Shown one piece after another: positions 1 to 62,575 of a stretch of 64,000 nt of DNA (position 1 is its first letter; each line of letters opens with the position of its first letter). Source of the DNA: Psilocybe cubensis (lineage: Eukaryota). The notes under the pieces are model-generated. The model made no database searches, had not been told where the DNA came from, and saw only the letters and a list, made by a program, of their open reading frames with translations. The stretch spans positions 4,216,001 to 4,280,000 of the forward strand of contig CM038998.1 of the NCBI GenBank assembly GCA_017499595.2, in the 5' to 3' direction. Made by a program: the position numbers and the translations under genes.

Positions 1-1328
1 TTCCTAGCACGCCGAACTCGACTCTATCGCGTCGATAAGACTGACATGGGTGTTGCGCGTCAAAAATTTTCCGCGCTCGTTCAAGAGTGCATAGTTGGAA
101 ACCGGCGTCAGTCTAAGGCGGTAGAGTTTGCTATTCAAAGCTGGTGTGTGTGAATCATAACACAATGTCGCATTGACATCAATAAGTCGGACAGCAGCCA
201 TCCGCTTGCGGCGTTGTTCCGTTGGTTTTGAGAGCTTTTGGGAGTGGCGGGGTTCTACTCTAGCTTCACTTGCACTAATCCGTCGGGCTATTAAACGTGC
301 TACTCACAACACAACTATTCAAGTGAGTGAAAGTGTTAGCAAACATGCTAACTTATTTTTGACGCGGTGGTTCATTTCCTGGTAGAGCAAGGCCAAATGT
401 ACGATCTGGCTTCAGGCTAAACGTTAGGCCGCGGAAAAGTTAAAGTTCTGATCAACCTCCCTTTCTTTGTCTCTTATCGTCCACTGGATGAGAGTTCCTG
501 GTTCTTGCGTGATACTGTTTGCGTGCATGTTAGTACTATATAAACTGGTCTGATCGCAAATTTATCTGATTCTCACAGAATGTGTATGTTGTACTTTTGA
601 AGACAAAGCAATCAAAGAAATCTTTTCGCTTCTCATACCTGCAGAAATGAAGTTCATTACATTAGACTTCGTGTGAACATCTACAAACATCCGAGTCGGT
701 CAACATCGGATAATTCAAAGATAGCCCTAGATCGAAGAAGGCCGTCTTGTAATTGACACAAGCTGAGCGGTGTTCTTCAACCAACTCCTGTCTCAACTTT
801 AATGTTCAAGCCTCAACCCACCCCAAGGCTCAATCCTTATAGGGAGCACAGAGTAGATAAGGTAAATATGTTATTTTGAGCTTCGTATGTTTGAAGTTTG
901 TTGGTCACTTTTCTACAGAGGTTCGTCGCATCGTATCTTGTCATCCCGGCGATCGTCTGTCCTAATCCGTTGTCACGCCAAATGTTCCTGGCGTACCTTA
1001 TAATAATTACCTACGATGTCGTATGAAATGACATCGGGCCAAGCAAAAAATAGTACGAGACGGTATGTACGGAAAAAGCACTATCGCTATAAGCGTGGTG
1101 CCGCCATGCCACCTAGTTGCTGCACGGCGGCAGTGCAGATGCTTCGAAGTTCGACGGTTTCCAAAACGCCATTCCGAGTCATGAAAGGGATAATTGTCCC
1201 TGATACCATCTATTAAATACATAGCGCCGCTAAGTCCCCTTATACTTGATCTTGACCTTCACCTTGTATTTCGACACCACCTCTCACCGAAAGAATCCGT
1301 ATCATCTCTTACTTCTACAGACGGCAGA

Positions 1329-10173: not shown

Positions 10174-13016
10174 TTAAAAGTATCCCGTTCGTGTCGATGG
10201 CGTAAATATTGGTAGCGGATGCGCCTGAATAAACAAGGAAGCAAGCGAACGAGTCAGTTCATTATCTTTCTGGTGTTCTAGAGCGAAGAGCATCGCCCAA
10301 AAGGAAACAAAGATGATGCATTTACCTCAGTGTTGAAGACATATTCTAGAAAAAGCACCAACGTGGGCGAAAGTACCAATCAGTAACCTTTGATCGACAG
10401 CTACGTGAAGCAAAAAGAGGACATACGATTAAGGGGAAGCACACTAGCGTCGGAGAAGAGAAGGTACAGGTATTTCAAAGTCTCGCTCTATAAATAGATC
10501 GAACTGTCATTGCAAACCAGGATAACGAAAGGGAAGAGACGAACCACAAAGAAGGTCTCCATTTTATCCATCTTGATTGAGTTGACGTTATCAACGTTCA
10601 AAAGAGAAGCGTATCCTCCATCCTCGATGCGGCAGTATTTTTCTATTGACTGGAAAATCTTCCAACCGTATTCTCGATACTTGGGATTTCCTGTGAGGCG
10701 GTACGCGATGAAAAGGGATTCAACTGTTTCTGGTCTGGATTGTCACAAAAAGTCATAAGGGTTGGATCTAAAGTACTATGATACATATAGTTACCGTAGG
10801 AGGTAGCGAGCATCATAGGAGGGCTGCCCTGGGAATCTATTGGAGTGATTAGAACATTCAGCAGCTGGGACGTTTTAGTTAGATCGGACACGTACGTGTT
10901 ACCCTTGATATACCAATCACGCTCTTTATCGTAGATGTAACGATCTTCTTCTGTCCAGAAATGCGCGATCTCAGGAGAAAGACCCCTAGAAGACATTTAA
11001 TAGGAAGACGTATGAAATGGAAAGAGGTGCTTACGTTTTTGTGTCATATGTATCTACACAAGTCTCAATGAGATCGTGCCCAAGTTGCCAATCCTTTTGG
11101 CCTGTCGGAGTGAGTTCTTCAGGACGGGGTGGGACGGACACAGAGGATCCGGAGGCAGCAGTTGTGGTCGCGCCAAGCATCAAAGAGCCGCCCAAGAAGC
11201 ACACAAGATGGTCTTGCTTGGGAGAGAGTCTCCATTGTCTAGGAAGGAGAACGAAATGATTCCAATACTTTCTTTGAACTGAACAATATGAAAGCTTACA
11301 CCTGTCCATCTGCTTGACGTTCAGGCAGAACCTCCGTGGTAAAGACGTGACCCTTGTTCAAACCTCTCTTGACAAGCGTGGTATGTATGGCATCCATGGT
11401 TTGTTGGTACATCTAACATAGAAAAGAAAGGATTGCTATGAAGCCACAACCACAAAACAAAGGCAAAATTTAACCTACTTCAAGGTATGCGGGTTCTGAT
11501 TTATTCTGATTTCAAGCCACGGTCAGAATAGATTCATTGTAAAAAATTAGGAGCAAAATCTTACTGTCTGCAAATACTGCTTTCTAGAAAAATGTCAGTG
11601 AAGATTTTGAATCAGTGTCAAGGTAAGCCTACAATAGATATTCATAGAAGGAGTCTCCTCTTGAACCTAATCGGATTTCTGAAAACAAGAATTGACCAGT
11701 TTCTGCACTATAAAGATAAAATAAAAACCGGTTCATCAGCAATGGAGCATAATTATAGACAACAAGAAGGAACCCACCTCAGATATATGGGAGCCAGCCC
11801 GGAAGGCAGTTTTGTTGCCTTGATGACCTTCATTACCTGGAAAACACCTCGCGTTAGCGCTGTTCCGATATACTTTTCAAGCAACGAAGTTTATTCTTAC
11901 TCCTTCAGCTTTATCCCAATACGTGTCATCGTCTGTCAAGAAGCTCAGATAACGGAGTTCCAGTTGTAATGTTGATGCCTCCGCGGTGCTGACTAGGTAT
12001 GGGTAATTTGGGTCATCCACTCCCTTACGCAGTTTGAGGTTGACCATGGAGTACGGTAGGCCGGAGGGCGTCTCAAATGCGGGCATCATCCTGTCTGCGA
12101 GGTCTTTCGCCTTTTCCAAAAATATGGGATCCTCATCTGAGAGGTGGTATGCCGTAAGCAGACCACCTAAAACGCGAATTGTGGTCTAAAAAACCAAAAG
12201 CGAGGATGAGATAACTGGAAGCCAGGGTAAAACTGAAGCTCACCTCGAAGGTGTTGAAGTGTCCATCCCTGTCAAAGGTGAGGTTATTCGCAACCCAGTC
12301 CCGTGCACGCTGGTACTCGTCCTGGAGACCCATAATTTGCATAGTGTCTATGGCATCGACAATCATATAGCCTATTCCTCCGTCATCCACCAGGTTTGTG
12401 CCTTTCTTCGACAAAGGATGATATTCGTCTTGTCCCATCGCGTCCCGTTCTAATCACAAACGCAATGATTATTGAGACAATGCCATTGGACTTCAGGCGC
12501 CTAAGGTAACTGACCATAAGCTGACCATGCATGCTGTTCAAAAATGAAACCCATTGGTATTTGCTGCACCCAAACACAGTAAAAAACGCACTTTAAACGC
12601 CTTCACGACTTCATCTCGTTTGGGAATGTCAGCCGCTATTACAGGTGCACTTTGTGAAGAGTTTCTGAAGCTGGCTACGCCGTCTAAGTGCGCATATGTG
12701 TCCACAGATGACGAGGGGGCGCCGAAATAAGCATTGAGTGTGCCTGTCTGTAACCAACATGTAAGTCCACAACGTCCGGGGAAGAAACATCACAACCAGA
12801 GCTAGGTTGGATGCACTTCCTACACACCTGATACAAATACACCAATAATGCCAGCACCACCGACACAATGGCGGACCTTCCAAACGTCGCTGGCTGCGTG
12901 TCCTGCTGAGCTAATTTCTTCTTCCCAAGGTTTTCCTTAGCCGACGACGCTGTACCCTTGAGTTCATCCTGGACCACAGAATGCCCATTGCTAGTGTCCG
13001 ATGTTGATTCTGTCAT
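10174..13016 (-). CDS. MNS1: Glycoside hydrolase family 47 class I alpha-1,2-mannosidase (ER Mns1-like), multi-exon
   Basis: N-terminal membrane anchor (AIVSVVLALLVYL), IVDAIDT, NTFE|TTIRVLGGLL, TAEASTLQLE, DHLVCFLGG, RPETVES and YVFNTE|AHPLP; stop 10174-10176. Confidence 0.92.
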
Positions 13017-13591: not shown

Positions 13592-15565
13592 CTACTCTAC
13601 TTCAGAGTCAGTGTAGTACGAATTTTCCACGTCGTCAAACATATCCTTTGGGAGGAAAGCAACCACCGGTCTTCCTATCTGGTCAGAAAACCCCAGATTC
13701 ACTGGGTTGCAATCGTCATCTCCCAATGAGGAGTCATCATCGTCAGAACCATAGTCACCCATATAACTGTCGCTAATAAATCCATCTAACTCGCTACAGT
13801 ATTCAGATTCGTCTTCGTCTTCCGACTTGTCGTCGTCATCCCCCGATTCCAATCCATTTTCTGAACCAGTGGCGCTTTCGGACTCATAATCAGTCGAACT
13901 GTCTGTGTACGATAATTCAGTGTCACTGCTTGAGTCTCCGCTCTGCTCCGAATCTTCGGCGTGCTTTAAAACTACTTCAATTTGGGCTCCATACCTAACA
14001 ATCTGCCTGATCAGTGCTTTGGTCGTCGATCCAAAACCAGGCGGTGGAGTGAAGTAATACATGTTGCAGGGTTCATATACCAGCCGGAGAATTTTGAGTG
14101 GCCTCCTCGACTCATCATTGAAATTGTTTCCCGACTGCCTGTCTAACCTCTTCTCAATCCCAAAAATATCAGGAACACGTTTCCCGAACTTGTGCCAATC
14201 GATCGGAGAGCGCGATACGTACTCGAAAGATTCCAGAACAGGGAGAAACATATCGAAACTGTAAGCAATGTTTTGGAACTGGGGTGGTCGTCTTAAGCTC
14301 GTACGCGACAGACGTTCGAAGAGGGGTTTGACGGTATATCTTGCATTGGAATCTAAACGATTGGGAGCTATGCGAAGCTCTTTCAGGCGAGGTACTGATT
14401 TAAGAACGCGAAATAAATCATCATTGTTGATACCATGAAGCCCATCGAGGTCCAGTTTTGTTAAAGGCCAGGAGGAACGTTGCATCAATCCAGTAAAAGA
14501 ACTTGGATCAATAACTCGGTATATCGCACTGAGTTTTAGTTCGTCCAGACGAGTTGATGCGATGCCAGCGAAAAGGGTATCCAGATATCTAGCATGCGCC
14601 ACACGTATGGAAAACATCCTCAGCGACGTATGAAAAACGGGTGAAGACCAATCTGGGTATGGAAATACTCCCCGTCGACTCTCTATGAGACACAATTTAG
14701 TCATGAGTGGCGCTTCACGCAACATTTTGAGCAAGTCCTTAACACTGATATCCTGTAAATTAGCTTCATTGAGGTTAAACCAGGAAGCCCTGATCGAGCT
14801 TAGATAGATGGAATCGAGACAAAGCGTTTTTGGGGCAGGCATCGACGTGACTCCGGCGGCGGCCACGTTTGCTAGCGCGAGGGAGTGGCCAGGTGGGGGA
14901 GGTTCGCGATCAGAATAACGCACTAAGAAATAACGATCAAAGAAATCGGCGCCATGCTCTGTGCTATTCATATGTATCAATTCCTGCAAGTTGGTGGGCT
15001 GGCCAGCGATCATCTCCATAAGCACCGTAGGCAAGTCGAGGCGTAAAACGGTCCAGTGTAGCGAAGACGCGTTGACGATACGGGCGAACCGCTTAAACTG
15101 CTCCAAATGTCCATCCCAAACTTCATCGCCGAGAGCATAGATGTGCATTTCCGACGGTCGATTCCCAGCACGATCTATCCATATCTCTGCCATATCAATC
15201 GATTGCTCCAGGCTCTCGACTGTAAGAGGGATAGATACGTGTTTCCAAAGGCTTGGTGTTCCTTCAACGATATCGCGCCACTGTTTGGAGACCAATCGCA
15301 ATGTCCAGAGACCCTTCTTCAGCCCCTGATCTTTGTACTCGCTAGGTTCTTCATGGAGACAGGATGCGAAAATTGCAGTCACCAATTCGAGGGGAATTTT
15401 GGCCACAAGGTTATCGGACCCGCCGATCGGATGCACATCAAGTGCAACAGCGTTGGGCCTGCCAATACTGTCGCTTGTTGTGCCTAGTCCCACCGTACTG
15501 CGGCTCGTGGTCGATGGCAGGTCCAGCTGCCTGTCTGGATCGACGAGAGACGCGTCTTCCAGCAT
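13592..15565 (-). CDS. F-box-like / RNI(LRR)-like protein with acidic C-terminal tail (agaric-expanded family), intronless
   Basis: 657-aa ORF; IPLELVTAIF..CL...LVSKQWRDIV..TPSLW F-box-like motif, LxxLxL repeats, D/E/S-rich tail. Confidence 0.8.
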   Translation of the reverse strand: MLEDASLVDPDRQLDLPSTTSRSTVGLGTTSDSIGRPNAVALDVHPIGGSDNLVAKIPLELVTAIFASCLHEEPSEYKDQGLKKGLWTLRLVSKQWRDIVEGTPSLWKHVSIPLTVESLEQSIDMAEIWIDRAGNRPSEMHIYALGDEVWDGHLEQFKRFARIVNASSLHWTVLRLDLPTVLMEMIAGQPTNLQELIHMNSTEHGADFFDRYFLVRYSDREPPPPGHSLALANVAAAGVTSMPAPKTLCLDSIYLSSIRASWFNLNEANLQDISVKDLLKMLREAPLMTKLCLIESRRGVFPYPDWSSPVFHTSLRMFSIRVAHARYLDTLFAGIASTRLDELKLSAIYRVIDPSSFTGLMQRSSWPLTKLDLDGLHGINNDDLFRVLKSVPRLKELRIAPNRLDSNARYTVKPLFERLSRTSLRRPPQFQNIAYSFDMFLPVLESFEYVSRSPIDWHKFGKRVPDIFGIEKRLDRQSGNNFNDESRRPLKILRLVYEPCNMYYFTPPPGFGSTTKALIRQIVRYGAQIEVVLKHAEDSEQSGDSSSDTELSYTDSSTDYESESATGSENGLESGDDDDKSEDEDESEYCSELDGFISDSYMGDYGSDDDDSSLGDDDCNPVNLGFSDQIGRPVVAFLPKDMFDDVENSYYTDSEVE

Positions 15566-16487
15566 TGTAGAAGTGGTGGGTGTTGAAGAAAGTCGTCTGT
15601 GGATGTGGCATCTCCCCTTGCTATTTTAACGATGTGGTGGCACAGATGTCCGTAGTTTAGAACACAATGGGACACCATGATCGTGAAAGGGGACTGAGTG
15701 GCTTGCCTTGAGGCGACTGTGATTTTACAGGCGCCATATGAAACGCGAACAATGGGAGTGATAGTTACTAGCCTCAACTAGCGTACGTGAAAGGGCATGA
15801 AAGGGTTTTCGAAATTCGAAATTCGAAGGCGGCCCGTCTCAAAACTCCGAATAAATTATCAGAGGATGTAATGCCGACGCGCCTTTGTATGACCTACCCA
15901 TCTAGAACATTATCACAATTCACTTAATCCAGCAAATTCGAAAACAAATCCACAGGTTGAACTGTGTATCTAGTACAATACGAGAAACTTGCACAACAAA
16001 CAAACGACGAGGTATGCTAAAATAGGGAGAGTAAGAAGAAAAAAAAATACGTGCGCGCGTAAAATATGCCTGAGTTGAAGCTTGCCGTGAATGGTGATAA
16101 TATTGGTGAAGTGAAGATGAATTGAAAAAGTGAAGCGAGGGCCGTAGTAAATATGCAGTTGGTCGTGATGAGATAAAAAGAATCTTGAATGTTGGCGTTA
16201 GGTCGGTTAATGGTATATGGGAGCTGTCGGAGGGAGGTTGGCAGTTGAGGGGAAATGAACGGACGTGGCTAGGTCGGAGGAACAGAGGATGGCGTTGGGA
16301 CGGCGTGTCGGAAGGTATTCTATCCCACTTGCATTACGGTCTTCACCGACAGATCCACAAGATCAAGCAAGGAAGGGTGTATGTATATCTATATGAAGCG
16401 ACGACAACAAAAAAAGATCCAAAAAATCCATTCCAATCCAACCCTGAGTGATAAAAATGGGGGAGTAAGGAGAAATTAATCCAACCT

Positions 16488-36335: not shown

Positions 36336-37477
36336 GTTACAGTGTCATAGACCAGGAGAGATAGTTAATGTCGAGCGTTTCGGGGGTTCAAGTATAAACT
36401 TAGGGGTGTCGGCGATGGTTCCTATAAATAGCCATCAAATTCTGGTCAAAGCAACTGCTTAGCGCCCATGCACAATTAAGATGGGAAGGCGTGGAGGGTG
36501 ACTGGATTAGATCATTAAGTTGCTATTGTATTTCTCAAAAAATACCCGTGGAAACGGCTATAACTTCATTGAAACCAATACATTTCGCTCAAGCCCACTG
36601 CCAACTGAATGCAGCCACTGATGGTTCATGTTGCATGGATATGTCAACAAAAAAAAAACGGATTCGACTGCCTTCTTTCTGATCGTTATTTTGAATGCAA
36701 ACTGAAAGGAGAAACTTTAACTGCCAACATGGTTGACCGTGACGTTTGACCTTACTAGTACAGTTAGAGTAACAACAGTTAGCCTACTACACTGAAATCT
36801 GACCAATACTCTTGGAACATTCAAAGATAGATTCATAATATTTGTGCAAATTATACAACTATCTTGGTTCAAACCATTTCAGTTGTCGACTGTCACCAGG
36901 CTTCACGCTTCAAAGCAAGCCACTGATAACGAGCCCTGGCCGCCAGCTGAGCTATTTTTGGTACGGTCACGTGCCTCTGTACACAAGCGAAAGTCCAAAG
37001 TTCAAACCACTGACTGAGTGGAGTGACCCACCAGTGTCTCTAGGATTGGAGTCACCCTGTGCCCTAACTTCCGAGATACTTCGGGAGGAGCGTCTCAGGA
37101 TGCTCCCTCACTGGCTTCTAGGACGACTTTATTATTAAACTGCGTACTGAATTCTCGTAAATGCATGCCGAATCTACGCTGTGAGGCTCTTGATCAGCAA
37201 GGATGTCCTTGTCAGTGCTTGATCATGCGATGGCTCTGAAGGAAGCATTCATTCAATTGGTGTCAAACGTGGAGCCTATACGAAGGTACGCTATTTACGA
37301 ATCTCCCATTCCATTTGCATTCCATTTACGTGGTCAAGTTTCCATGATATCTAGTGTTCATGTTCGGCTACCCAAATTTCAACAATCTACACGTTCTTGA
37401 AGTTCACGCAATAATCGTATTCTTAGGTCTTTGCCAGCTAAAATGACAGTCGTGCTTTCAGAGAGTCCTGCAAATTG

Positions 37478-37484
37478 TATATAA
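37478..37484 (+). promoter_or_regulatory. Putative TATA box of the RHS gene
   Basis: TATATAA about 60 nt upstream of ATG 37543. Confidence 0.5.
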
Positions 37485-37542
37485 GGATGTTGTGTACGCG
37501 ATTCTACTCAAGTACATCTATACTGCTGAAATCCAGAAATCG

Positions 37543-49517: not shown

Positions 49518-49954
49518 CCTAATTCAACGTATAATGAGTAAGTCTTGATCGTCTAGGTTCTGAACAGACGGGGTTTACGTTTTGGTTATTGTTCAATAAA
49601 ATTGTGATACCTCGCTCTCGATGCATGATGAGAGTGGCTCCATATTTAATAATTATTGCCCACAAAAATACTATTTATGTAACGCTGCTGTCTGTCCGAA
49701 CACAGCAGTGACACTCAAACCGGTAAGGTAAAAGAACCAATTAAGAAACGATATGTTTCTTAATCATGGACAGTATATATACAGCAGAAACGGTAGAGTA
49801 GTAAGGCAGCAGGCCTACAATTTACGTGGTGCCCCCTTGTTGATATTCATAGTTTTAATCTAAATTTCCATCCTCAACAGACAGGGAGTCTTTTAAAATC
49901 GCATAGCGATTAGTCTTCAAGCACAGACCACCTGGATGACCGGGTACGGGTTAG

Positions 49955-50297
49955 TTACACTGCAAAGTACTGAGTACTGGAAATCAGGTATGCTCTCACC
50001 GTTTCTTCTGACTGAAATCGATAATCCAATATTTCTGAAGTAAACGATGAAATTTCTATTCTCATGTCTCCTCGTCCTTCGCGAAGTAATTTGCAAACAA
50101 ACACCATGATAAACGGTTGATAAACGGCCAGGCATTGACCTCGGTACATTGAATATTCTTTTGAGTAGACTGGCTACCCTCCAGGTGGGATTACTTTCTT
50201 TGTTATCTGAATTTGGCATTCCCGGATTGGTAGATTCCGACGCTTTCCGTGTCCGCGACGAGATGGACAATGCATCACATGACGCACCATCCATGAG
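49955..50297 (-). pseudogene. Decayed copy of the deaminase-like gene (unit 3)
   Basis: Reads QCTEVNAWPFI, then a short duplication/frameshift, then PFIMVFVCKLLREGRGDMRIEISSFT...QSEETVRAYLISSTQYFAV. The intact gene reads QCAEVIAWPFIMQFARDFLRKGQKTKRIEIVSLT...QSEETVRACLISSTQRSAV. The PFCTNC segment and 5' exons are missing. Confidence 0.85.
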
Positions 50298-50427
50298 GAA
50301 AGAAATTCAAACCTGAGCGTTCTCTCACCAACCAACCACCACGTTGCAAATCGACGAAGGCAAGAAAAAGGCCTTCAAAGCTCTCTGATCAAACTCGTCT
50401 CCTCAGCATTCAGAGGTTGAATTATCA

Positions 50428-51414
50428 ATGGGACAGATCTATTCAATGCTCAATACTTTCCAGGCCATTCGCAAAGCTACTGTGCTTTTTGCCCGCCGTT
50501 TGCTCTTTCGCGACCATCAGCTCATTGAGCCACCAGAGATAGAACGCACCTCACATGTCCCTATTACGCTTCAGTCTCTACCCGTGGAGATTCTCCTGCA
50601 TGTTTTCTCGTTTCTTGAACTCCAGCCATACTTAATTTCCCATGGCGTCTGTAAAGACTGGAAGCGTCTCCTACCATTGACCGAACTTCATCCAATCCGT
50701 GGCCGCATGCTAGACCTTTACAGAAGGATTATGTCTACTCCAAATTTCGAAAAGGCACTTCCTTGGACGCTGGATAACATGCAACCGTTTGATAGGCAGA
50801 CTTATATTGATGGACTCCTCAGACTGTACCCCGTCATTCCTGCAGAATTCCGGATGTGGATCCTCGAATGGCCTAACTGCCTTGCTATAAGATGCACATG
50901 GCCCTCCCTTCCCGTATTTCGCTCTAGATGCCATGACTGTCAACGAAGACCCGGTGTCAATTGGTTAGGATACGCTCCTACCAACCCTCACCTATATGCA
51001 GTAGTTTATAGAAGGGGCACCCCGGACGTAAAGGTTATTCCCGCTCTCTTAATATGGAGAGAAACCTCCATCACTGATTGGCTGATATTTGACCAAGACG
51101 AACCCGACCTTTTTGGTAGGGTATATGTCAACGATTTCATAGACGGCGCAACCTCAGCAGTGATACCATATCCTGGGCAAGATCCATGGTATATCAACGA
51201 GCCGTATCCAGATTGGATTGCCTACATGGAGTATCTATGGGAATGTACTGCCAGCGCATTGGAAGTAAACCCATTACTCCAGCTTCCTGACGAACCACTG
51301 GTTCTACCAATCGTGGTTTGCTACAATATGGCATGGGATACCACACTTCCCACCTTTCCATGGGCACAACGTGATGATGTCTTGAGGCTGGCACGCAACC
51401 CGCAAAACCATTAA
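50428..51414 (+). CDS. F-box + putative SUKH-like protein, copy 4 (intact)
   Basis: 328-aa ORF with the same architecture as copies 1-3. Confidence 0.85.
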   Translation: MGQIYSMLNTFQAIRKATVLFARRLLFRDHQLIEPPEIERTSHVPITLQSLPVEILLHVFSFLELQPYLISHGVCKDWKRLLPLTELHPIRGRMLDLYRRIMSTPNFEKALPWTLDNMQPFDRQTYIDGLLRLYPVIPAEFRMWILEWPNCLAIRCTWPSLPVFRSRCHDCQRRPGVNWLGYAPTNPHLYAVVYRRGTPDVKVIPALLIWRETSITDWLIFDQDEPDLFGRVYVNDFIDGATSAVIPYPGQDPWYINEPYPDWIAYMEYLWECTASALEVNPLLQLPDEPLVLPIVVCYNMAWDTTLPTFPWAQRDDVLRLARNPQNH

Positions 51415-51823
51415 ACCCCACGAATCCTTGTGGCCTACTTTAATTAACTTTTGACCAGTAAGTCTTGATCACTTAGGATGCGAGTAACTTGGCTAAACCT
51501 CCCGATAATTACAGTCGATCCGAACCATGGCGGTGAGATTAATGTTGGATATCGTTGTACCCCTGGGCTCTGAACAGACAGGGTTTACATTGTGGTTTTT
51601 ATTCCATGAAAATAATTCATCATTATCGATGTATGAGTTAGTAGGACAGTAGCTCGATATGTGATAATCATTGTACACAACATTGCTATTTACATATTGC
51701 CATCTTGCTGCTATCAACTGTGCTAATCTCAATGTTTATGTTCAGACGATGGTGGTTCTTTATTAAACTGCGTGGCAATCAGTCTTCAAGCTCGGACCAC
51801 TTGGACAACTAGAAATGGGTGAG

Positions 51824-52992
51824 TCACACTGCTGAACGCTGAGTACTGGAAATTAGGCATGCTCTCACCGTTTCTTCTGACTGGTAGATATCCGGGCCTA
51901 GGGCCCGGGAGGCATCGACAATTCGCAAGCCAAAGATTTCGTTGCACCTACCTTTAGCACGCATACTGCAATTGGTGCAGAATGGTATTGCCGGCCGGCC
52001 TTCGGACTTGCTTAAAGTAAGCGACACAATCTCAATCCTTTTGGTTTTTTGACCTTTGCGAAGAAAATCCCGAGCAAACTGCATAATAAACGGCCAAGCA
52101 ATGACCTCGGCACACTGAGTTGGTCTTCGAGTGGTCTGGCTGGTCTCCGTGAGATGAAACTCTGTGGGTTGATTCTCTGTGAGATGAGTGCCTACATAAA
52201 TCAATGCTTGTCGGTAGAGGACGTTCATATCCCGCTCTGCGGGTGTGAGCCGTGGTTCAACGGCGCGGAGATGGGCCGTCTGTCCGTAATGGACAGGGAT
52301 CTCATCCTTCATATTTGCCTCAACGATGCAGAAGGAGCTGTAAGGGAGACTTTCGAGACTTCCACGGTTGGCAATATGTATGTCCATATATCGCTCTAGA
52401 GAGTTTCGTAAGTCCTGAAGTCGGTCGGGCCCTGTCGATCTGATAGCTGGTTGGTGAAGACTGTACGCCACAGAACCCATAATCTCGAGGTAGAACTTGT
52501 TGTCAGAAGGAGACTCCCTCTCTGACAGAAGCTGCCGGAAGTACGAGGGTATCAATCCTTGCTTACTGTGGTGATGAAAGATGCGTTCGAGATAGTCGGT
52601 CTCTATGGGTATAGTTGAATCAAGATCAGAGGGAAGCTCGACTATAATCAATACTCATCAACTGGATTTCTTAAGAATAATATGGTGTATACTTACGTCG
52701 TGGATATTTGTCCGGATGAAGAAGAGTTTTGTTCAAGTTTTTCTGTAATTCCTTCACATTGAGGAGGATAGCGCTAAATCGTTGCTCGCGGAGCCTCTCG
52801 ACGGCCTCAGCTGACAGAAATCAGAAAAACGAATTTATTGGATGAATGTTGCATACTTTTGGGAACTTTGAGCTTCTTGGGCTTTGGTGGGTTTTGGACA
52901 GGGACACCAGTATCGTAATCATCATCGTTTTCCAACATAATCGGAGAAAAAAACTCGGACAGTGGTGTCGATGGAGGTGGAAGTTCAGACAT
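51824..52992 (-). CDS. Putative zinc-dependent nucleic-acid/nucleotide deaminase (CAE...PxCxxC; possibly YwqJ-like), 3 exons, ~355 aa
   Basis: Introns 52811-52856 (GTATGC..TCAG) and 52642-52696 (GTAAGT..ATAG) give a stop-free 1068-nt CDS. CAE at 52106-52114, a beta-strand IEIVSLTL, and PFCTNC at 51968-51985. Confidence 0.65.
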
Positions 52993-54981
52993 TTGGAAAA
53001 GATGTAAGCGAAGCTAGGACTTGTGCATCCTAGAGCAAACGCATAGCGCTTAAATAAATTCAGGAGATGGCATATGTGAGGCAACTACGTGTTTTGTTTA
53101 TCTAGATGGATCTGACAGATGGTAAGTTTTTGAAACGCCACCCAAGGATTTGCTGCTGGAGCACAATAATGGGCCCAACACGTTCATATGTTCGTTGTCT
53201 TATGGAGTAATCAGATGTTCTACGTCCAGAAGGCGAGAGCACAGGTGTATAAAACGAGGTCAGCTTGATAATTGCGACCGGTCGGGGATTCTCGCTTTTT
53301 GCGGCCCGGGGAAAGCTCCCAACGGGCGCTTAAAGATGAACAGATATGAAAGGTTTTAGGTAATGATACCGGCATATGTATCTTCAAAGGGTAGTATACG
53401 CATCGAATGAATGATAAGGCCTGCCTATGTAGTACGGAGACAGGAATCGGTCGTAAATGTCTTTTTTACTTGTTATACGTGCCAGATTTCACCAACGCCC
53501 ACAAATCAGCCTCATTCTAAACACGTTCCTGATGTAGTATAAATAAGTTGACGAGTTCGCGACTTTTAGTTTTATTCCACCAGATTTCGGCATAATCCTG
53601 ACGTTGTGTGTAATCCCTGCACCACTGAGTCTCAGGTGCTTCTGTGCTCCATAATAGCACATCAGATGAAGAGCCGAGTCATATCTCGGGGTGGTTTTCT
53701 CAAAGCGACTGTACATGCAAGGCGACTTATTGGATCTCGAAGCAAAGATAATCAGTGATGAGAATGAGGAGAAACATGATGTTAATCGCCTCTGCCTCTT
53801 CATTGATTCCGGCATTCTGAGAAGTAAAAAGTATTCCAGCATTCCAAATGCACAGCTCAAGTCGAATGTCGACCTGAAGCTTCAATCTTGTCGCAGCGGG
53901 GACCTTCAGATTGGTTAATGGTCGCCATGCTTGCACGGTACACATGAGCCGCCTGGTGCGACTGCAGAGAGGCAGCGAGGCTGTACAAAAGCTATTATTT
54001 TTTTTATTTCACAGGATAAGATAGGGCTCGCTTCGTAGTTTTACCTGTTGGTTGATGTAGAATCGAGTCACTGGAGCTGTAGGATATTTCAAAATAAAAC
54101 AGATCTTCTAATCGGGCAAAGATCCTTTGAATATACGGGCGTGCGTTTTGGACCAGGTAGTGAGTTGCTTGAAGGAGACACTGTCAGTCGCCACTCGGTT
54201 AAATCCACCTTCGTCCCGTTTGCGCCAAGCCTGCCTACATCCTTCAGTGGCGTTTTCCTTCTTCTCGAGGCCCTAGACCCAGTTCTCACTAAAAATATTC
54301 GCTACCCTCATGGTTAATGACTCGAGTCGAAGTCCTCCGTGTTGGTCATTTGTGTCTCGCCTGGAAACATCATGGTAGTCAGAAGTGAGCATCCTATCTA
54401 TTTTAGTTTTTCTCATACCTGTTGTCCTATGATTACACGTTTCCTATACCTTTTTGGTGAGGAGGTTCCTTATCCTGAAATGTAATGTAATTGGATTAGT
54501 AGCTTGGGGGGACGAAGACTCGCGCCGAATCTGGGGCATGCGGTGGAAGACAAACCTCGCTTGCTAATGTGCTGCGTATAACTCTCATCACCCAGCCGGT
54601 AGTGTTTCAAGCTGATTGCTCTCACCACTGTAGTGGAGCAAATTATTACAAAGTGAAATCGACGAGCATCGGAACCGGAGCGAGGAACGAATATTATCAG
54701 GTACAAGTCACATTATGGCAAACGCGACACAAATCGTACACAAATTACAAAGCATTACGACAGCATTAAAATTAATTATAACCAACACGAGACCAGCGTA
54801 TGAGTGCCGCAGAAACTACACAAGAATTGCGATATACCGAGTTGCTGAAATGATTAACTGTGTGATACTATGCAGGACGTTTCCATCACTGGCAAATAAT
54901 ATTTAACCGACATGGTTCAGAACAACCGCAAATATCAGGCGAATTAACGATAACTCGCATCCTGAATGAGGTGATCAAGAC

Positions 54982-56000
54982 TTACGAGTCTTTGGAAGTT
55001 AAGTTAGTAAGGCACGAGAGTGGAAGCTGGTGATCCCATGCCAGCCTCAAGACATCATTTCGCAAACTCCATGGAAACGTAGGAAGTGAACCATCCCATG
55101 TTTGATCGAATCCAACCACGACAGGTAGAACGAGTGGTTCGTCAGGAAGTTGGTGTAATAGATTTAGTTCCAATGCACTGACAGTACATTCCCATAGATA
55201 TTCCATATAAGCAATCCAGTCTGGATACGGCTCGTTTGTACGCCGCGGATCTTGCCCAGGATAGGGTATCACTGCAGAGGATTCCATTTCCATGAAATCG
55301 GTGACATATACCCTACCAAAAAGGTCGGGTTCGTCTTGGTCAAATATCAGCCAGTTAGTGACGACGTGCTCTCTCCATATCAAGAGAGCAGGTATAACCT
55401 TCACGTCCGGGGTGTCACTTCTATAAACTACTGTAGATAGGTGAGGGCAGGTAGGAGCGTATCCCAACCAATTAACGCCAAGTCTTCGTTGATGATTTTC
55501 CGATCCAGACCAAACGACAGGGAGCGAGGGCCATGTGCATCTAATAGCAAGGCAGTTAGGCCACTCGAGGATCCACATTTGGAATTCTGCAGGAATGACA
55601 GGATATTGGGCAAGGAGTGTGTTGATGTATGTCTTTCTATCAAACGGTTGCATATTCTCCAGCGTCCATGGGCGCGTCATTTCATGATTCGGGGTAGATA
55701 TAATCCTGTGGTAAAGTTCCAGCATGCGGCGGCGGATTGGATGAAGTTCAGTCAGTGGTGGGAGACGCTGCCAGTCTTTAGACACGGCATGGGAAATTAT
55801 GTAGTGCTTGAGTTCAAGAAACGAAAAAATATGCAGGAGAATCTCGATGGGTAGAGACTGAAGTACTGAAGTGTAACAGGGATATGTGAGGTGCTTGGTG
55901 GTTCGACGGGCTAGTGGTCGCGAAAGAGCAAACGGCGAGCAAGACCCACAGAATTGCGAATACCCTGGAAGATATTGAACATTGAATAGATCTGTCCCAT
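54982..56000 (-). pseudogene. F-box + putative SUKH-like protein, copy 5 (inverted); ancestral N-terminal frame broken
   Basis: Ancestral start ATG 56000 (MGQIYSM.., as in copy 4) meets TAG at 55911-55913, and an 8-bp duplication (actgaagt x2, 55857-55872) shifts the frame. A 373-aa ORF from ATG 56103 in the other frame still covers the whole F-box and C-terminal domain. Confidence 0.65.
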
Positions 56001-56610
56001 TAGTACCTCGATCTCTGAGAGACGAAGAATGGTTTCGACCAGAGGGAAACTCTGAAGGTCTTTGTCGATTTGCAACGTGTTGTAATAAGAAAATGCTCAA
56101 CATGAGTTATTTTTGGATTTTTTTTTCCTTCACGATGATCCATGTGACTCCGAGTCATAATCTCATTGTTCGAGTGACAATTCGACTTTTTTTTTCGTGG
56201 TAAGTTTGGCTTTTGTCTGGTATATTTCATGATGGTTGCACAAGGATTATTGAATAACGAATAATGTCTTTCTTACAACAACCACGACATTAAGAATGCT
56301 TATCCTTGAGTTTTTTTTTGGGTCGCTGGCAAGGCTGGTACAAAGGGTAGCACCATCAAGAAAGATCAAGACACCTACCAAGAGTACCTGCCTGCTCCAG
56401 AGTCCATGTCAAGGAGGTAAACAATACTCATTTGTTACAGGCGACCTGACATGGTTAATTATTACGAAATTTCTGTTTAAAGTGTACCAATTTCAAGACA
56501 TCATTAAGAAACACCCATGGAAAGCCGAATTGTTAAAACTTAACTGTGTTATATTATGCAGGAAGTTATCATCATACAATATTGTAGAAGGAACTTGATG
56601 ACATTTCATA

Positions 56611-59600
56611 TCACAAAGTCTCCCAGCCTCCGGAATCCATACTGCTTTCCAGTTTTCTAGCGACCATGCTTGGGATCCCATGAGAGAGCCAAGTTTTACG
56701 AATCACCTCCCATCGTGCGTGGTGTAAAAATTGTCTGCGGCCGCGCCTACTGCGTGTCAAACCTTGTTAGCAATGAAAAAAGGTAAGTAAAGAGACAGTC
56801 GACCTTACCTCATAGATAGATCGACTTCGCCATGCGCATCGAGGTAGGGCGAAGGCGTAAATGTGCCATTACCGTTATTCAGGTATAGCACAGAACATCG
56901 CTTAACGCAATAATAAATTCCAATAGTACCTCCGCATCTGAATCGGACATCAGTATCTAGAGCAAATCTAAAGAGGTATGACATACTCTCGAGTATGCAT
57001 ATTGCATTCTCCCCGATTGTTGTAATCCTCATCAATACAACAACTGCTCTGAAGGCATACCGTCGATCCACAAATCAAACATATAGCCGCATCGCTCGGG
57101 AAAGTTTCGCAATTCACACACATCAACGCCTTATCCTGACGATTGAATAGGCTATCCAATACCAGAGGCAGTCTCGCCAGACGGTACGCCACAGGGTAAT
57201 CCAAAAGTATACCGCAATTTATCTGGCCGGCTGCATGAGAATGTCCATAATGAGCACACCAACCCGAAAGCGCATTTTGGAGAGTATCTTGACGAGGAAG
57301 GTCAGACAGGGGAGGAATGTCCAGCATTGTTAAAAGGCGAGTGTACTCGCAGACGTCATCTGTGCTGAATATCGGCGTTGGGAACGAGTGTGGTAAAACG
57401 GTCCGACAGAGGATGGCCGCACGACGGAGGAATGGTAAAGTGAAGGCGTAAAGTAGTTTCTCAATCCTAGCCTCGGTAAATGTTTCAAAGGCATAAATGG
57501 CCGTGCGCTCGAATAAAGGTGAATGTCGAACGACTGACATAAAGAACATACGGATATCACCAAAAATATCCTCATGCGACCTTTGCGTCAATGGTGTTGT
57601 GTTGTGATTCCGCAACTTGTTGAGAATGTAAACAAGACCAATGACAGTGCGGGCCAGGCACGCATAATACGCCAGCACGAGCACATGCCGAAGCATCTCA
57701 GGAGCCACAGCAGCCGTTTCCACCAGAATCGTAAAGGGGTCTCTTAGAAGAAGCGGGTAAGAGAATGACGTCAGTGAAGAACGACTCCATTCCGGTAGTA
57801 GTCTTTTGATGATTGCTTGTCGAACAGCATCTCGTCCTTCGTCTGGCCGATTCCTGAACTGGAGTGCGACGAGCTTGGTCAAGCAGGCCAAGAGACCCTT
57901 AATCATCCTCGTCTGAGATTCTGAGATCGCGTCGACCATCATAGTCCCTTTCTCAGCACCCAAATTCGAAGTATCTACTCCAACACCTCTCTGGGAAATC
58001 TCCATTGCAGCTATGGTATACCCCACCAATTCCTCAGGAAGATAAATGCCAGCTCCTCGTTCCGAGTTCTCTGGTTCCATGCGGTCACGAAGATGCCTTG
58101 TTTGCTGTGAAATGGATTTGGATATCACCATTACGGTGTCGAGCATCTTTCCTCCATCAGCAGGATCGGGTCTGTCTCTTTCAGCATTTCTCCTGATAAC
58201 AGTAGCATATCCCGAGTCTTGAGCACTCCAGAACACAAACTCTCCTGTACCATTACGAGACTGAAGCGAATCCAACAGTGGATCGGGTTTGCTCTTCAGA
58301 ATATGGATACCCGCCGCTCTTATCCAATCCGGAAACGGGACTGGATTGAGTTGAGTTCGAGTGTCAGGCTGCGTTACCGGAAGGATGACATTGCCCAAGC
58401 TTTTACAAAGGGGGCAGATAAACTCTTTTCGAGGGATGCATTCCGGGTGATTGCGCGTCGCCTGCGTCCGATGTCGCTGCCTGATAGAGACACTATATAC
58501 CTGGAAGCAGTCTAAATGCATTAAGTGACTGCAGACGGAGCTATGTAGCCCAAACCGTGTATAGTTTAATGGGAAGCCTTCGAAGTTATGGGATGTGGAA
58601 CGAGCATCCAATAAGTCTGCTTGAGGTGGTGGGAATGAAGTGACGGTTGGAGCGCTTGGGGTAATGCCAGGAGAGTTTGGGCTTGTGCTAGCAGTGCGAT
58701 CCAAGGAAAGGGGGGCCGTTAAGACTTCGTTGAGGTAACTGCCTTGTGTGTCAGGATGTCGTCGTATCATTCTACTCGGCTGAATCAATCCAAGAGATCC
58801 AAACGGTTTTCCAGACGCAGCACTCAAGTTGGTCAAGTCTTCTTGACATACGATGCATGTTCCAAACAAAACTTCTTCGTCTTCATCGGATCCATCTGCG
58901 CCAACCATACTGGAATCACCATCACCACCGTCACTGTCGTCTTCTGAGCCGGAATCCATGCCTTGTCCGAACATGCTCGCGAAGCTCGCTTGTTGTGCCT
59001 TCATCTGAAGCATAATCGCTTCTTGGCGTTTTTTCGCAGCCTTCTTCCTCTGCTCGTCTTTGTCGATGCCAGCAGACCGAGGACCATTGCCACCGGAATT
59101 TCCCGCAAGATTCTCTTCTCCACGAATTCGTCGAATTTCATCGGGGATATGAGGCTGCATTTTACTAAATATCCATTCCACTCGTGCCTTGTACAGTTTG
59201 GCGTATTTGTCGTGACTTCCGAGCATGGATAGCACCTCAATGAGAGTCTTTCCTTCCAACACCTTTTTGGATGCAAGAGTACTGAAGCCTTTAGGACGTT
59301 CGACCATACCGAGCATGATCATATGCAAAGCTTGGTCGAGGATAGCTTCTGCTGAGGGTGGCGATGGTCCTGCAGTTCCTGAATCAGTGACAACAAGAAC
59401 GTTCCAAATGGCGTAGAACATTATTTGCATCATAAGATCTCTCTCCCAGACGTCACTAACGCCTTTGTACGGGCCTTCTGTAACGCCAAATGGTTTTGGA
59501 GTCAAAACAACCTCCCACTCCTTCTTACCCGTGCGCTTTTCAATTCTTTTCCTCAAAACATTCTCGACCTCCTCTCTGCGATTCCGTGTGTAGTGATAAA

Positions 59601-62575
59601 AGAATGGATTGACCTCGTCGTACGCCTCGTCCTTAAGCTCATAGAGGCCGGTTTCATTAGGCCCTTCAGGTGGTCGGAAGTTGGCAACTTCGCGCAACAT
59701 TCCTTCGAAAGATGGGTCGTCAACCAAGCGCTCTGCAACACGTTTAACAAGGTCTGAAAAGCTACATGGACCCATAGCGAGGGCATGAACAATTTCCCTC
59801 CTAATGGCAAGGTGCATTGGCATTTTGCTGGCGTTGGCGTTTTCGCTCAAAATGGTGATGAGCACGTAGAAAACCTCCTCCACCATGCTTCCGAGTTGAG
59901 TCCCTTCGTACTGAGATTGCAGGTAAGACCCAGAGAAATACCCAAGCAGACCGAAGCGATCTAAGATAGAGACAATGACGAGGTCGGAGGGAATGATGAC
60001 AAGGGCAGTTTGGAGAATGAAAAGATCTTGATCATAGCACAATTCTCGAAGCATGTAATCTCTGTAATGCAATAATTGACCGCGAATGGCGAATCCATTG
60101 CGAACCCAAAGCCCTGTCCGTATTTGAGCAATCATAGCCAACACTGCAATCAAATAGTTACAGTTCATCAAAATTATAAATAACAAAAAAAACTTACCTC
60201 TCAATGGGAAATCGATAATCGTCAGGATAGCTTGTTCGCTAGCGCCACGTCCGAACACTTCCCTTATTCCTCCTGTAATCCCTACACTCTTTAGTTCTTC
60301 CTCGCCCAGAAGGTCGACGTGTTTGAGGAGCTCAGCTAGGAGCCAGTGTAAGGCATGATGGAAACTAACCCAGCCCTCTGAAACATCAAATTGAAGTGTA
60401 TTATACCGTTTGCCTCCAAATTCAACCTGGTGAAAAGTGGGGGCGGAAAATTTTGTGCGATCCAGACGATCTTCCGCCAAAGTGCACACCATTAGTATCT
60501 GGTGTACTACCGTCCCGATAGCGCTGATCAATTCGGCTGTAGTAGACTTCCCAAAAGCCTCCCCAAACACTTTGATTACTCTACTCAGGCTGAGAGTGAC
60601 GTTGAAGACGCTGATCCACGCATCGGTTTCATATTCAACATGTGTCTCGACCGCCCTTTTGTTGGGGTTTAAACACATGAAGAGTCTACATGTTGATGCA
60701 AACGCAACAAGATATGAAGGATTATGGGCGATTAGATCCTGAACTTGGGAAGTGTGCGCCAGGTATCGAAGATCGCTGAATACAGGCATGAACCTCTTAG
60801 ATTTGAATGGAAACGAATCGACATCTATAGTGCCCGTTGCAGGGGGCATTATTGCTGCTGAAGCTCCCACTCCTGCACCCACAGACGGAAACCCGACAGA
60901 AGAAGTTGATGATGGAGGGGATGTAATACTAGATGGGCCTGCATATACAATTCGCTTTTCAACTATCCTGTTGGTGAAGAAACTGGTGATGATGGCTAGT
61001 AACCTTTGCACAAGTTTGTGATTCCGGGCGATATGACCCGACACAGAGGGAACCGTAAAAAGCTGAAGAGCAAAGTATTTTATACTCGTTTCAGCTTCGC
61101 GGTCAACCAGCAGGTATGCATCGATTACTCGATGATAGATATTGGCAAAATGTCCAGCTAAAATTTGGTCAGACCTTGAAGATAGAGTGGAAGAAGAAAT
61201 AATTTACCGATAACTAATTTATGTGCTCTGCTCACTGATATCACTGACGCATAAACCTCCTTTAAGCTTAATCTTGGACGCTTCCAGAGCCTTGTTTGGT
61301 ACAGAAGAAGTGTATCCAATCTTGTAGCGTTAGGTATTTCGGAATCCAGGTTTAACGCAGTCGGTGGTGTCATATGCTTTGTAAAAGCGTCTCTCCGTCT
61401 GGGACTGAGCAATTCAGCCGCCAATGCTTCCCTAATGACCAACATATCCGTACCAAGTCGACTCCGAGTCAAATCCAATAGCCACTCAATAATCACTCCC
61501 ACAACCTGTTCGCAAAACGTGTCGTAGGCTCTCCGGACCGTTACGCCTAGGTCAATTTGGGTTATAGCCTGAGCTGTCTCAAGCAGTCGCGTAATGTTCG
61601 AGTTCGTGTCGATAATTTCCCGTCCTTGCTCATCTATTTTTCGAACCAGAGCGGCTGCATCTTCATGTGTCCGGTTCGTCAGATCGATTAGAATCTTGGT
61701 GACTTCGTCATAGGAATGTTTGTCGTCGTTCCACAGGACAATGCAATATTGATCCTTCATCATTGGGTCTGCTGAAGGTTGTAAACGAAGATCGGCCTCA
61801 TTGGCGGGTACTGTCGGTTCATCAGGTGAATAGTCTAGAGTGTCCAGGAGGAAGTCCAATGCAAAACCAATCGTTCGTCGCATGCAGTCCTTAAGATCTG
61901 GAGGAACGGCCACACGAAACGAGTAATTAGGCGCTGGTGGCACTTCGTTCGGTAATGGTTTCAGTATGACTCGAGGCGTAGTATCTTGAGGATCTCCAGG
62001 TTTTGCAGGCGGATGGTGTGGACATTTAATATCCGTCCTCCATGCCTCTTCGTCTCCACAATCGCAGCACCCTCCAGATTGCTGGGCGATGAAGAAGCTG
62101 ACGTTATGGGTCGAGTGATCCGTCGCATGAAAGCAACGGGAACACAGAACGCAACTATCATCTAATGCGCAATCTCTTCACATCCATTAGGACACACTCT
62201 GCATGTGCAGAACGTGAATGATTCTACGCACTTGCATCTGTAGCAACTTTCGCCTTTGTTGAATATATGGCTGCATGGCCTCCCGGGAACCATGGGGTCT
62301 TCCTTGCCCGCCCCAGCAAAGCCTACAGAGACTTGATACTCGCTCAGCAGAGTATGCGGCGGAACTTGTGATACGCCGCTAGGCAGAAAAAGATTTGGAT
62401 ATGTCCCCATAAATGCGATGTAAAGTTTGCTGATAATCTCTGCGCGTGCGGCCGGCGTGAACACATATTTCCTCGACCCAGGCATAATCTCCAAAGAGAA
62501 GCGAAGGTCAGATAAGAAATCGCCATGGTTGGACAACGGCCGCCTCGGTGGAAAGAATGATGAGAGTGCCGACAT
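56611..62575 (-). CDS. UBR1: N-end rule E3 ubiquitin ligase Ubr1, multi-exon
   Basis: UBR box (PCSHIFNKGESCYRCK..CALDDSCVLC..CF..H..H..GGCCDCGD.EAW), ClpS-like LWNDDKHSY, GLWVRNG, RING-H2 (CIVCQE..CSHLMH..C..CPLCK), C-terminal YLDAHGEVD; stop 56611-56613. Confidence 0.95.

Follow-up and report, generated by a model that had tools for sequence, protein, structure and literature searches.

Base editors, and innate defences such as APOBEC, work by means of nucleic-acid deaminases, enzymes that in eukaryotes are thought to derive for the most part from bacterial toxins. Among bacterial immunity proteins, the commonest fold is that of the SUKH superfamily. The idea that a toxin/immunity pair can be rebuilt around the ubiquitin system has so far mainly been predicted, from architectures like that of FBXO3, and is illustrated by HIV Vif, which controls the mutagenic deaminase APOBEC3G through its role as a cullin-ligase adaptor. 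Here we describe a gene of the mushroom Psilocybe cubensis whose product is assigned to the zinc-dependent deaminase superfamily and which converges on a gene for an F-box protein with a SUKH-like domain. Both genes lie in a 64,000-nucleotide stretch of contig CM038998.1 (assembly GCA_017499595.2, positions 4,216,001 to 4,280,000 of the forward strand), which is referred to as the window and whose own numbering is used throughout. An earlier interpretation made from the letters of the window (the sequence-only reading) had singled out the gene as intact, spliced and carrying a zinc-deaminase signature.

The most relevant bacterial relatives are the deaminase toxins of the YwqJ clade. According to Iyer et al. 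(2011, PMC3239186), this clade is defined by a Gx[CH]xE motif, by an insert that lies after strand 2 and before helix 2 and carries a conserved His, and by a further insert before the CxxC motif; its membership extends to basidiomycetes, mushrooms among them, as the sequence-only reading had stated. The same study presents the strand-2/helix-2 insert as a shared mark of the toxin-type nucleic-acid deaminases of the YwqJ, BURPS668_1122 and SCP1.201 groups, and its Table 1 names SUKH proteins as providing immunity against deaminase toxins, those of YwqJ type among them. It also gives CxE as the usual state across the C-terminal-hairpin division of the superfamily, housekeeping cytidine deaminases included, so that the Cys in [H/C]xE, which the sequence-only reading had noted as occurring in bacterial toxin clades, is not the mark of a toxin. 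The YwqJ protein of Bacillus subtilis has been reported to be a toxin that deaminates cytidine in single-stranded DNA (Oliver et al. 2026 preprint, PMC13648612), and FBXO3, Smi1/Knr4 and Syd have been named as SUKH members (Zhang et al. 2011, PMC3113570). Among the literature records listed, none describes a fungal deaminase/F-box pair.

Predicted fold, active-site signature and gene structure

The gene occupies positions 52992-51779 of the minus strand and corresponds to P. cubensis JR316_0001441, which is annotated as a hypothetical protein of 350 amino acids. AlphaFold2 models were computed from shallow alignments, of 18 sequences for the deaminase and 23 for the F-box protein. The deaminase model has a mean predicted local distance difference test score (pLDDT) of 79.3 and a predicted template modelling score of 0.79; in most blocks of the core (residues 141-340) pLDDT is 83-96, with dips at 231-260. 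The modelled deaminase domain comprises residues ~150-338 (51878..52444, minus strand). Its elements run in the order helix 1 (154-176), strand 1 (186-192), strand 2 (201-204), an insert of ~55 residues (205-259) with a helix of its own (217-235), helix 2 (262-278), strand 3 (286-294), helix 3 (306-318), and strands 4 and 5 (322-326 and 334-337). The last two strands form a hairpin with seven non-helical residues between them and no helix 4. The model thus has the three-layer alpha/beta/alpha core and five-stranded sheet of the cytidine deaminase (CDA) fold, with its elements in deaminase order, as the sequence-only reading had anticipated, and the predicted hairpin places the protein in the C-terminal-hairpin division of the superfamily. 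That division takes in CDA, DYW, YwqJ, BURPS668_1122 and SCP1.201 among others, and the best structural matches given below, cytidine and blasticidin-S deaminases, are also part of it.

The model was searched by structure against 48,161 PDB representatives. Of the first 37 rows at least 33 are, judged by title, deaminases or deaminase-based editors, and five chains reach Z≥5. The list is headed by a cytidine deaminase (3b8f, Z 7.0) and a blasticidin-S deaminase (3oj6, Z 6.9, root-mean-square deviation (rmsd) 2.9, 112 residues). A second structural comparison gave the blasticidin-S deaminase 1wn6_B as its best match (Z 7.3, rmsd 2.9, 112 of 126 residues aligned), and complexes of Vif with APOBEC3G also appear among its matches. 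The Z-scores are modest, and the structural case, itself a case about a model, is carried by the uniformity of the match list together with the positions of the motifs: CAE starts the helix at 262-278 and CxxC the helix at 306-318. These positions at helix N-termini suggest a zinc site made up of C260, C305 and C308.

The two motifs are found in the open frame at 51824..52654 (minus strand), which is 99% identical to JR316_0001441 over 94% of the frame and reads ...QCAEVIAWPF...IPFCTNC.... Codons C260-A261-E262 (52106..52114) would provide a zinc ligand and the catalytic Glu at the N-terminus of helix 2, and within PFCTNC (codons P303-C308, 51968..51985) C305 and C308 would be the remaining ligands at the N-terminus of helix 3. 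When the protein is shuffled with its composition preserved, a pattern of the form [HC]xE-(25..60)-CxxC turns up 107 times in 20,000 shuffles, and among the 90 open reading frames (ORFs) of at least 100 amino acids in the window it occurs once, in the deaminase gene itself. An exhaustive phmmer search of 1.84 billion representative proteins at E≤0.001, which was also the one search in which bacterial relatives were sought, yielded just 18 homologues, and a word-index search with the family alignment yielded two proteins out of 8000 scored candidates. The homologues come from P. cubensis (two paralogues), Psilocybe cyanescens, Agrocybe pediades (several) and environmental assemblies, and are 19-41% identical to the window protein.

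Across this divergence C260 and E262 are invariant in 18 of 18 sequences and C305 and C308 in 17 of 17, as are R227, P242, G321, D326 and Y336 (17/17 each). CAE...CxxC is therefore a genuine conserved deaminase active-site signature, standing at the positions that the fold requires. The PxCxxC form given by the sequence-only reading holds for its two Cys residues and not for its Pro, which is kept in only 5 of 17 homologues; F304 is present in 16 of 17, so that the family motif is F-C-x-N-C, and the positions that follow it vary among homologues. Judged from these comparisons the family appears small, fast-evolving and previously unnamed, with members so far in a few Agaricales and environmental fungal contigs only. 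The N-terminus of the window protein is acidic and proline-rich, no hydrophobic N-terminal stretch is seen by eye, and Pfam scans of the protein and its family find no delivery domain.

The whole gene (51779..52992, minus strand) begins with an ATG at 52992-52990, and a scripted four-exon splice model that ends at the annotated stop (51781-51779) recreates the annotated 350-amino-acid protein exactly. Exon 1 (52857..52992) encodes residues 1-45 plus one base and is predicted to be disordered, pLDDT being below 50 for residues 1-34. It contains the basic stretch KPKKLKVPK (codons 37-45, 52858..52884 in the splice model), which could be a nuclear localisation signal of the K-K/R-x-K/R consensus type. 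Intron 1 (52811..52856, 46 nt) and intron 2 (52642..52696, 55 nt), both GT..AG, flank exon 2 of the splice model (52697..52810). Exon 3 (51869..52641) holds a conserved helical N-terminal region and the entire deaminase domain; it is followed by annotated intron 3 (51809..51868, 60 nt, GT..AG), which is doubtful, and by annotated exon 4 (51779..51808) of the splice model.

In run X1 a single contig of 197 nt, at depth 5.5, passes from 52857 straight to 52810. It lacks the 46 nt of intron 1, whose ends read CT..AC on the plus strand, and so shows transcription of the gene and the modelled splicing of this intron. The RNA nature of this run is presumed, and introns 2 (predicted) and 3 as well as the 3′ end lie outside its cover. 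Reading through intron 3 gives a two-intron model of 136+114+815 nt, or 355 codons; translation then stops at 51826-51824, which lies 45 nt upstream of where the annotated protein ends. This is the protein that the sequence-only reading had spliced by hand; its two introns are the first two of the annotation, and the frame is open through all exons. Annotated intron 3 may be spurious and the 355-residue C-terminus correct, because the residue after Thr341 is Val in 8 of 15 homologues, and read-through gives Val342 where the annotated splice gives Leu.

Relationship to known deaminases and competing readings

Profiles of six deaminase groups were compared by hhalign with the C-terminal part of the family. 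The comparison domains were drawn from genomes of one phylum, the Myxococcota, and chosen by Pfam or NCBIfam model (YwqJ 14, OTT_1508 5, BURPS668_1122 6, DddA-like 1, tetrameric CDA 15 and TadA-like 15); no DYW domain was found in the 201 genomes scanned for the set. Shuffled templates average 11-13. The best of the six is YwqJ, with a score of 26.8 (P 0.0024, probability 12%) over 90 columns with the motifs in register, a score reached by none of 40 shuffled templates. It is followed by BURPS668_1122 (23.1 over 24 columns), CDA (20.2, probability 2%), OTT_1508 (16.8, with an alignment outside the motifs and out of register), the DddA-like domain (14.1) and TadA (13.1). The alignments pair CAE with the CAE, and FCxNC with the PCGxCRQ, of cytidine deaminases, and CAE with the HSE of YwqJ. 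In the ESM Atlas, the nearest named cluster is YwqJ (0.83-0.84), which is a lead only.

Taken together, these observations make it probable that the protein is a catalytically competent zinc deaminase, one whose target is probably nucleic acid; that it binds zinc and is catalytic, like its substrate, cellular location and biological role, is what we infer here. Within the zinc-dependent deaminase superfamily it would be an intact enzyme that is expressed and stays inside the cell, in which Cys260 at the start of helix 2 and Cys305 and Cys308 at the start of helix 3 would hold a zinc-bound water and Glu262 would shuttle a proton for the hydrolytic deamination of a base. The substrate would most likely be the cytosine of the fungal cell's own compartments, possibly the nucleus, in either single-stranded DNA or RNA, because an insert of this kind is tied to the toxin-type nucleic-acid deaminases (Iyer et al. 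2011); single-stranded DNA is named because B. subtilis YwqJ reportedly deaminates cytidine in DNA of this form. Its role would be in conflict or defence and not in nucleotide salvage. The sequence-only reading went further, to a DNA/RNA-editing or mutagenic toxin and a possible base-editor scaffold, both of which are putative roles. No sequence library recognises the family, so that family-based mining would miss it, and it may offer a compact new scaffold.

A number of results weigh against this assignment. Pfam deaminase models searched at E≤10 match none of the 18 family members, NCBIfam deaminase models match none of the four members scanned, and a profile search of the PDB gave one spurious match at E 0.5, with nothing more credible from phmmer against the PDB. 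Foldseek finds no match for the model in the PDB at E≤0.001, although it ranks blasticidin-S deaminases with a probability of 0.6-0.75. Every deaminase has a Z below 8, in the range where the search tool warns of a mere common arrangement of elements, and the enzymes matched best in structure, the deaminases of blasticidin S and of cytidine, have free nucleosides and not nucleic acids as substrates. Masking the seven catalytic columns drops the YwqJ score to background (13.8-14.0), and the other sets fall likewise; the similarity to YwqJ thus consists of motifs and their spacing, with no clade-specific signature. The expression evidence, which is one 197-nt contig from a run of presumed RNA nature, and part of the strain data given below fall on the same side.

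The protein is filed in the deaminase superfamily and its hairpin division, where the toxin group that bears the insert comes closest to it. Membership of the YwqJ clade itself is not assigned. The residue two before C260, Gly in the clade's Gx[CH]xE, is Gly in none of 18 family members (ten have D and five have E, while T, V and C occur once each); PF14431 (YwqJ-deaminase) matches 0/18 at E≤10, and the profile signal is lost on masking. In the alignment, a His after strand 2, behind a conserved Gly, is present in 11 of 15 homologues and is Gln in the window protein, while position 255 is His in 10 of 18 and Arg in the window protein; hhalign aligns neither column with the LHP of YwqJ domains. 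The likeness to YwqJ (PF14431; the B. subtilis LXG toxin YwqJ) that the sequence-only reading proposed therefore stands as the best of six profiles, with the nearest ESM Atlas cluster as a lead and with mushroom members and SUKH-type immunity reported for the clade (Iyer et al. 2011), and is not established as a clade assignment. The proteins also differ in build. The window protein keeps strands 4 and 5, whereas in 14 of 14 bacterial YwqJ domains fetched the chain stops 9-16 residues past CxxC. It is a free-standing eukaryotic protein, which would be intracellular, with an N-terminal helical region of its own, whereas YwqJ forms the tip of a larger toxin of LXG or RHS type.

The OTT_1508-like fungal deaminases (PF14441), described by Iyer et al. 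(2011) as an expansion in fungi that is large and evolves fast, resemble the window protein in being fungal and highly divergent, in their lineage-specific expansion, in an extra N-terminal domain, and in a proposed role in genomic or inter-individual conflict. They are members of the helix-4 division, with a GxxK ahead of CxxC, whereas in the window model strands 4 and 5 are joined without a helix; PF14441 matches 0/18 family members at E≤10 and the hhalign alignment lies outside the motifs, and this clade was rejected.

A nucleic-acid substrate has to be set against the possibility that the protein deaminates a free nucleoside, a nucleotide or a nucleoside-like small molecule in salvage, detoxification or secondary metabolism, which we regard as improbable, though it is the better of two alternatives. 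In structure the model comes closest to blasticidin-S deaminases, at Z 6.9-7.3 and rmsd 2.9-3.9, and to cytidine deaminases, at Z 7.0 and 5.0-5.2, with which the window protein shares CAE, CxxC and the strand-4/5 hairpin; CxE is usual in that group (Iyer et al. 2011), and hhalign registers helix 2 through strand 4 with the tetrameric cytidine deaminases. That profile match is nevertheless weak, and it too sinks to background once the motifs are masked. The window protein has FCxNC in place of PCGxCRQ, without the conserved G, R and Q, and differs further in its ~150 extra N-terminal residues and in the ~55 residues and extra helix between strand 2 and CAE, where helix 2 of those enzymes comes directly behind strand 2. 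It matches no CDA sequence model, and the Pfam (0/18) and NCBIfam (0/4) results likewise place it outside the CDD/CDA and blasticidin-S clades. Salvage enzymes, moreover, are seldom so restricted in distribution (18 in 1.84 billion), so fast-evolving, or paired with an F-box/SUKH-like gene.

The second alternative concerns constraint. Contigs of runs X2 and X3, which carry the same organism label, cover the gene with many differences: there are none across the 322 nt upstream (52979-53300), while pieces of the coding region (51501-52747) differ by 0.4-8.6%, for example at 21 of 243 positions. Each run has two haplotype-like contigs that are strongly different from each other. Among the 27 coding differences listed, 47 further differences lying outside the listing, 22 are nonsynonymous, against a neutral expectation of 0.72-0.77; none of those listed touches C260, E262, C305 or C308. 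One X3 contig (depth 19) has a stop at codon 56 (Arg), within a cluster of five close differences in 52781-52801 and with 3 nt missing at 52794, and may reflect either an allele broken in a different strain or a faulty alignment at the deletion. Between two environmental contigs that carry homologues, L191 and L192, the ratio of nonsynonymous to synonymous substitution (dN/dS) is 0.55 for the deaminase (Sd 10, Nd 19) and 0.19 for its F-box neighbour. The gene is fast-evolving or weakly constrained, its active site excepted.

That the protein is a decaying or non-catalytic relic under relaxed constraint, a binding protein or an incipient pseudogene, is quite unlikely: strain differences indistinguishable from neutrality, an allele contig with a premature stop and a 3-nt deletion, decayed copies behind other F-box paralogues, Gln in place of the His after strand 2 and thin transcript evidence speak for it, but all three or four exons read as an intact frame, the four catalytic residues are invariant over 18 sequences at 19-41% identity and spared by the listed strain differences, the L191/L192 ratio is below 1, and the model core is confident.

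The convergent F-box/SUKH-like neighbour

The deaminase gene is met by the gene for P0022 (50446..51414, plus strand), a protein of 322 amino acids with an F-box and a SUKH-like alpha+beta domain; the two genes converge with 364 bp between their stops. The F-box is recognised by PF12937 (27.8 bits, cut-off 24.3), which matches 17 of 23 family members, and by PF00646 (20.9-21 bits, cut-off 20.5), and its PDB profile matches are the F-boxes of Skp2, Fbw7 and Cdc4. A SUKH domain had been anticipated beforehand, because SUKH proteins are listed partners of deaminase toxins and FBXO3 is itself an F-box-SUKH protein. The AlphaFold model of P0022 has a pLDDT of mostly 84-93 over residues 81-322. In the structural search its C-terminal domain (residues ~81-280) reaches Z≥5 with only 8 of 48,161 PDB chains, which are the top eight rows. 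The best is FBXO3 residues 87-266 (Z 7.8, 157 residues aligned), followed by B. subtilis YobK (7.3), 2icg (6.9), 2pag (5.8), yeast Knr4 (5.5), Syd (5.5), a SMI1/KNR4-family protein (5.5) and 4iqn (5.0); the next row, a type VI immunity protein, is at Z 3.9. Of the PDB entries concerned, 2prv, 2icg and 2pag are SUKH proteins.

The C-terminal domain of P0022 is thus predicted to have the SUKH fold, with all Z-scores below 8. P0022 has the F-box-then-SUKH order of FBXO3, its best structural match. The assignment comes from the predicted structure and not from sequence: SUKH Pfam families searched at E≤1 match 0 of 23 F-box family members, and the P0022 family scores 16.3 by hhalign against 12 SMI1_KNR4 domains, a background value reached by 3 of 25 shuffles. 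Foldseek finds no match for the P0022 model in the PDB at E≤0.001, and its top two rows are FBXO3 (E 0.084 and 0.39).

By analogy with bacterial pairs, P0022 may be a binding partner or controller of the deaminase, and among arguments from context this neighbour, new in this analysis, speaks most strongly for the enzyme having a toxin-like role. As in the bacterial pairs of deaminase and SUKH immunity protein, a deaminase gene adjoins a SUKH-like gene; unlike them, the window genes are eukaryotic and convergent and form no operon. It is conceivable, though we hold it only tentatively, that the two form a eukaryotic toxin-immunity (poison-antidote) module, in which the SUKH-F-box fusion would neutralise a mutagenic deaminase by sending it to destruction by a Skp1-cullin-F-box (SCF) ubiquitin ligase. 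Such a module could serve non-self recognition between hyphae or nuclei, or could counter selfish elements. If the two proteins bind, they would be a natural toxin/immunity pair rebuilt around the ubiquitin system, which would make that idea directly testable in culturable mushrooms or in yeast.

Layout of the locus and comparison with other genomes

A tandem F-box array runs up to the deaminase gene, which lies at its end. Three tandem F-box/SUKH-like paralogues, identified by ORF, Pfam and BLAST, precede P0022 on the plus strand (44521-45519, 46091-47155 and 47859-48920), and a further ORF of the same kind lies beyond the deaminase on the minus strand (54982-56106). The five paralogues in 44521-51414 and 54982-56106 thus include the copy adjoining the deaminase, to which the others are 73-86% identical, and pairwise dN/dS among them is 0.16-0.51. 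Behind the first two lie remnants (45828-45921 and 47369-47648) that match the 3′ end of the deaminase gene and the spacer. Behind the paralogue that precedes P0022 lies a decayed copy of the 3′ part of the deaminase gene (49820..50190, minus strand), which was detected by blastn and tblastn, reaches E 0.011 with the family hidden Markov model (HMM) and keeps recognisable coding pieces. The duplicated unit was the gene pair, because each of the three upstream F-box copies is trailed by deaminase 3′-end sequence. The F-box copies appear to have been maintained while the deaminase copies behind them decayed, leaving one deaminase and many adaptors.

Directly ahead of the array, on the same strand, consecutive ORF pieces at 37447-43965 contain matches to FG-GAP, to RHS repeats and the RHS core motif and, narrowly under the cut-off at E 2e-4, to SpvB; together they resemble a Tc-B/C-like or RHS 'cocoon' gene of fungal type. 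The C-terminal tip of this gene, ~170 amino acids long (43447-43965) matches no Pfam family and not the deaminase family HMM, and the RHS ORF has no sequence match in the PDB at E≤0.001. In its layout, with a SpvB/FG-GAP/RHS gene, four tandem F-box/SUKH-like genes and then the deaminase, the locus resembles a bacterial polymorphic-toxin locus adopted by a mushroom. Just past the last F-box paralogue, at 56968-62177 (minus strand), lies a gene for a UBR1-type N-recognin E3 ligase (UBR box, ClpS-like, UBR1 winged-helix and PRT6_C), whose proximity to the array is probably a coincidence. An unrelated F-box-like ORF is present at 13592-15625 (minus strand).

Homologues of the F-box gene are found in the same taxa as the deaminase family. 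Synteny in P. cyanescens and Agrocybe was inferred from locus tags. In P. cyanescens, F-box genes CVT25_008990-008993 and the deaminase orthologue CVT25_008982 share one contig of 172,369 bp and are non-adjacent by tag; in Agrocybe an F-box homologue lies on the 3.9-Mb contig of the deaminase, 54 tags off. On the environmental contigs L191 and L192 a deaminase homologue that is 30% identical to the window protein (family HMM E 6e-66 and 2e-75) is again convergent with an F-box homologue (41% identical), ~180 bp apart. These two contigs count as one further lineage because they are 92-95% identical to each other, and the linkage of deaminase and F-box gene is thus seen in two lineages whose proteins are only 30-41% identical. 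A third environmental contig (L193) has two fragments of a deaminase homologue at 1885-2686 on its plus strand (HMM E 4e-10 and 3e-9), probably a decayed copy, and no F-box homologue. In the 13 ORFs scanned of 54 with at least 85 amino acids on the three contigs, no RHS or informative Pfam match was found, the matches being to GST and, weakly, MBOAT.

The bacterial loci fetched for comparison offer two further observations. Of the 14 Myxococcota loci with a YwqJ-type toxin (L120-L133), 12 have a next ORF that overlaps the toxin stop by 4 nt, and in 12 that ORF encodes a protein of ~100-150 amino acids with repeated G-x-PFTG-like motifs, a YwqK-like immunity protein. The C-terminal domain of P0022 has no profile similarity to these YwqK-like ORFs downstream of the fetched YwqJ toxins. 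On contig C11 of genome G025 (L145, L185) a BURPS668_1122-type deaminase (11450-11809, minus strand) is followed 120 nt downstream by a SMI1_KNR4 ORF (10986-11330, minus strand), so that the pairing of deaminase and SUKH considered for the window is also seen in a bacterium.

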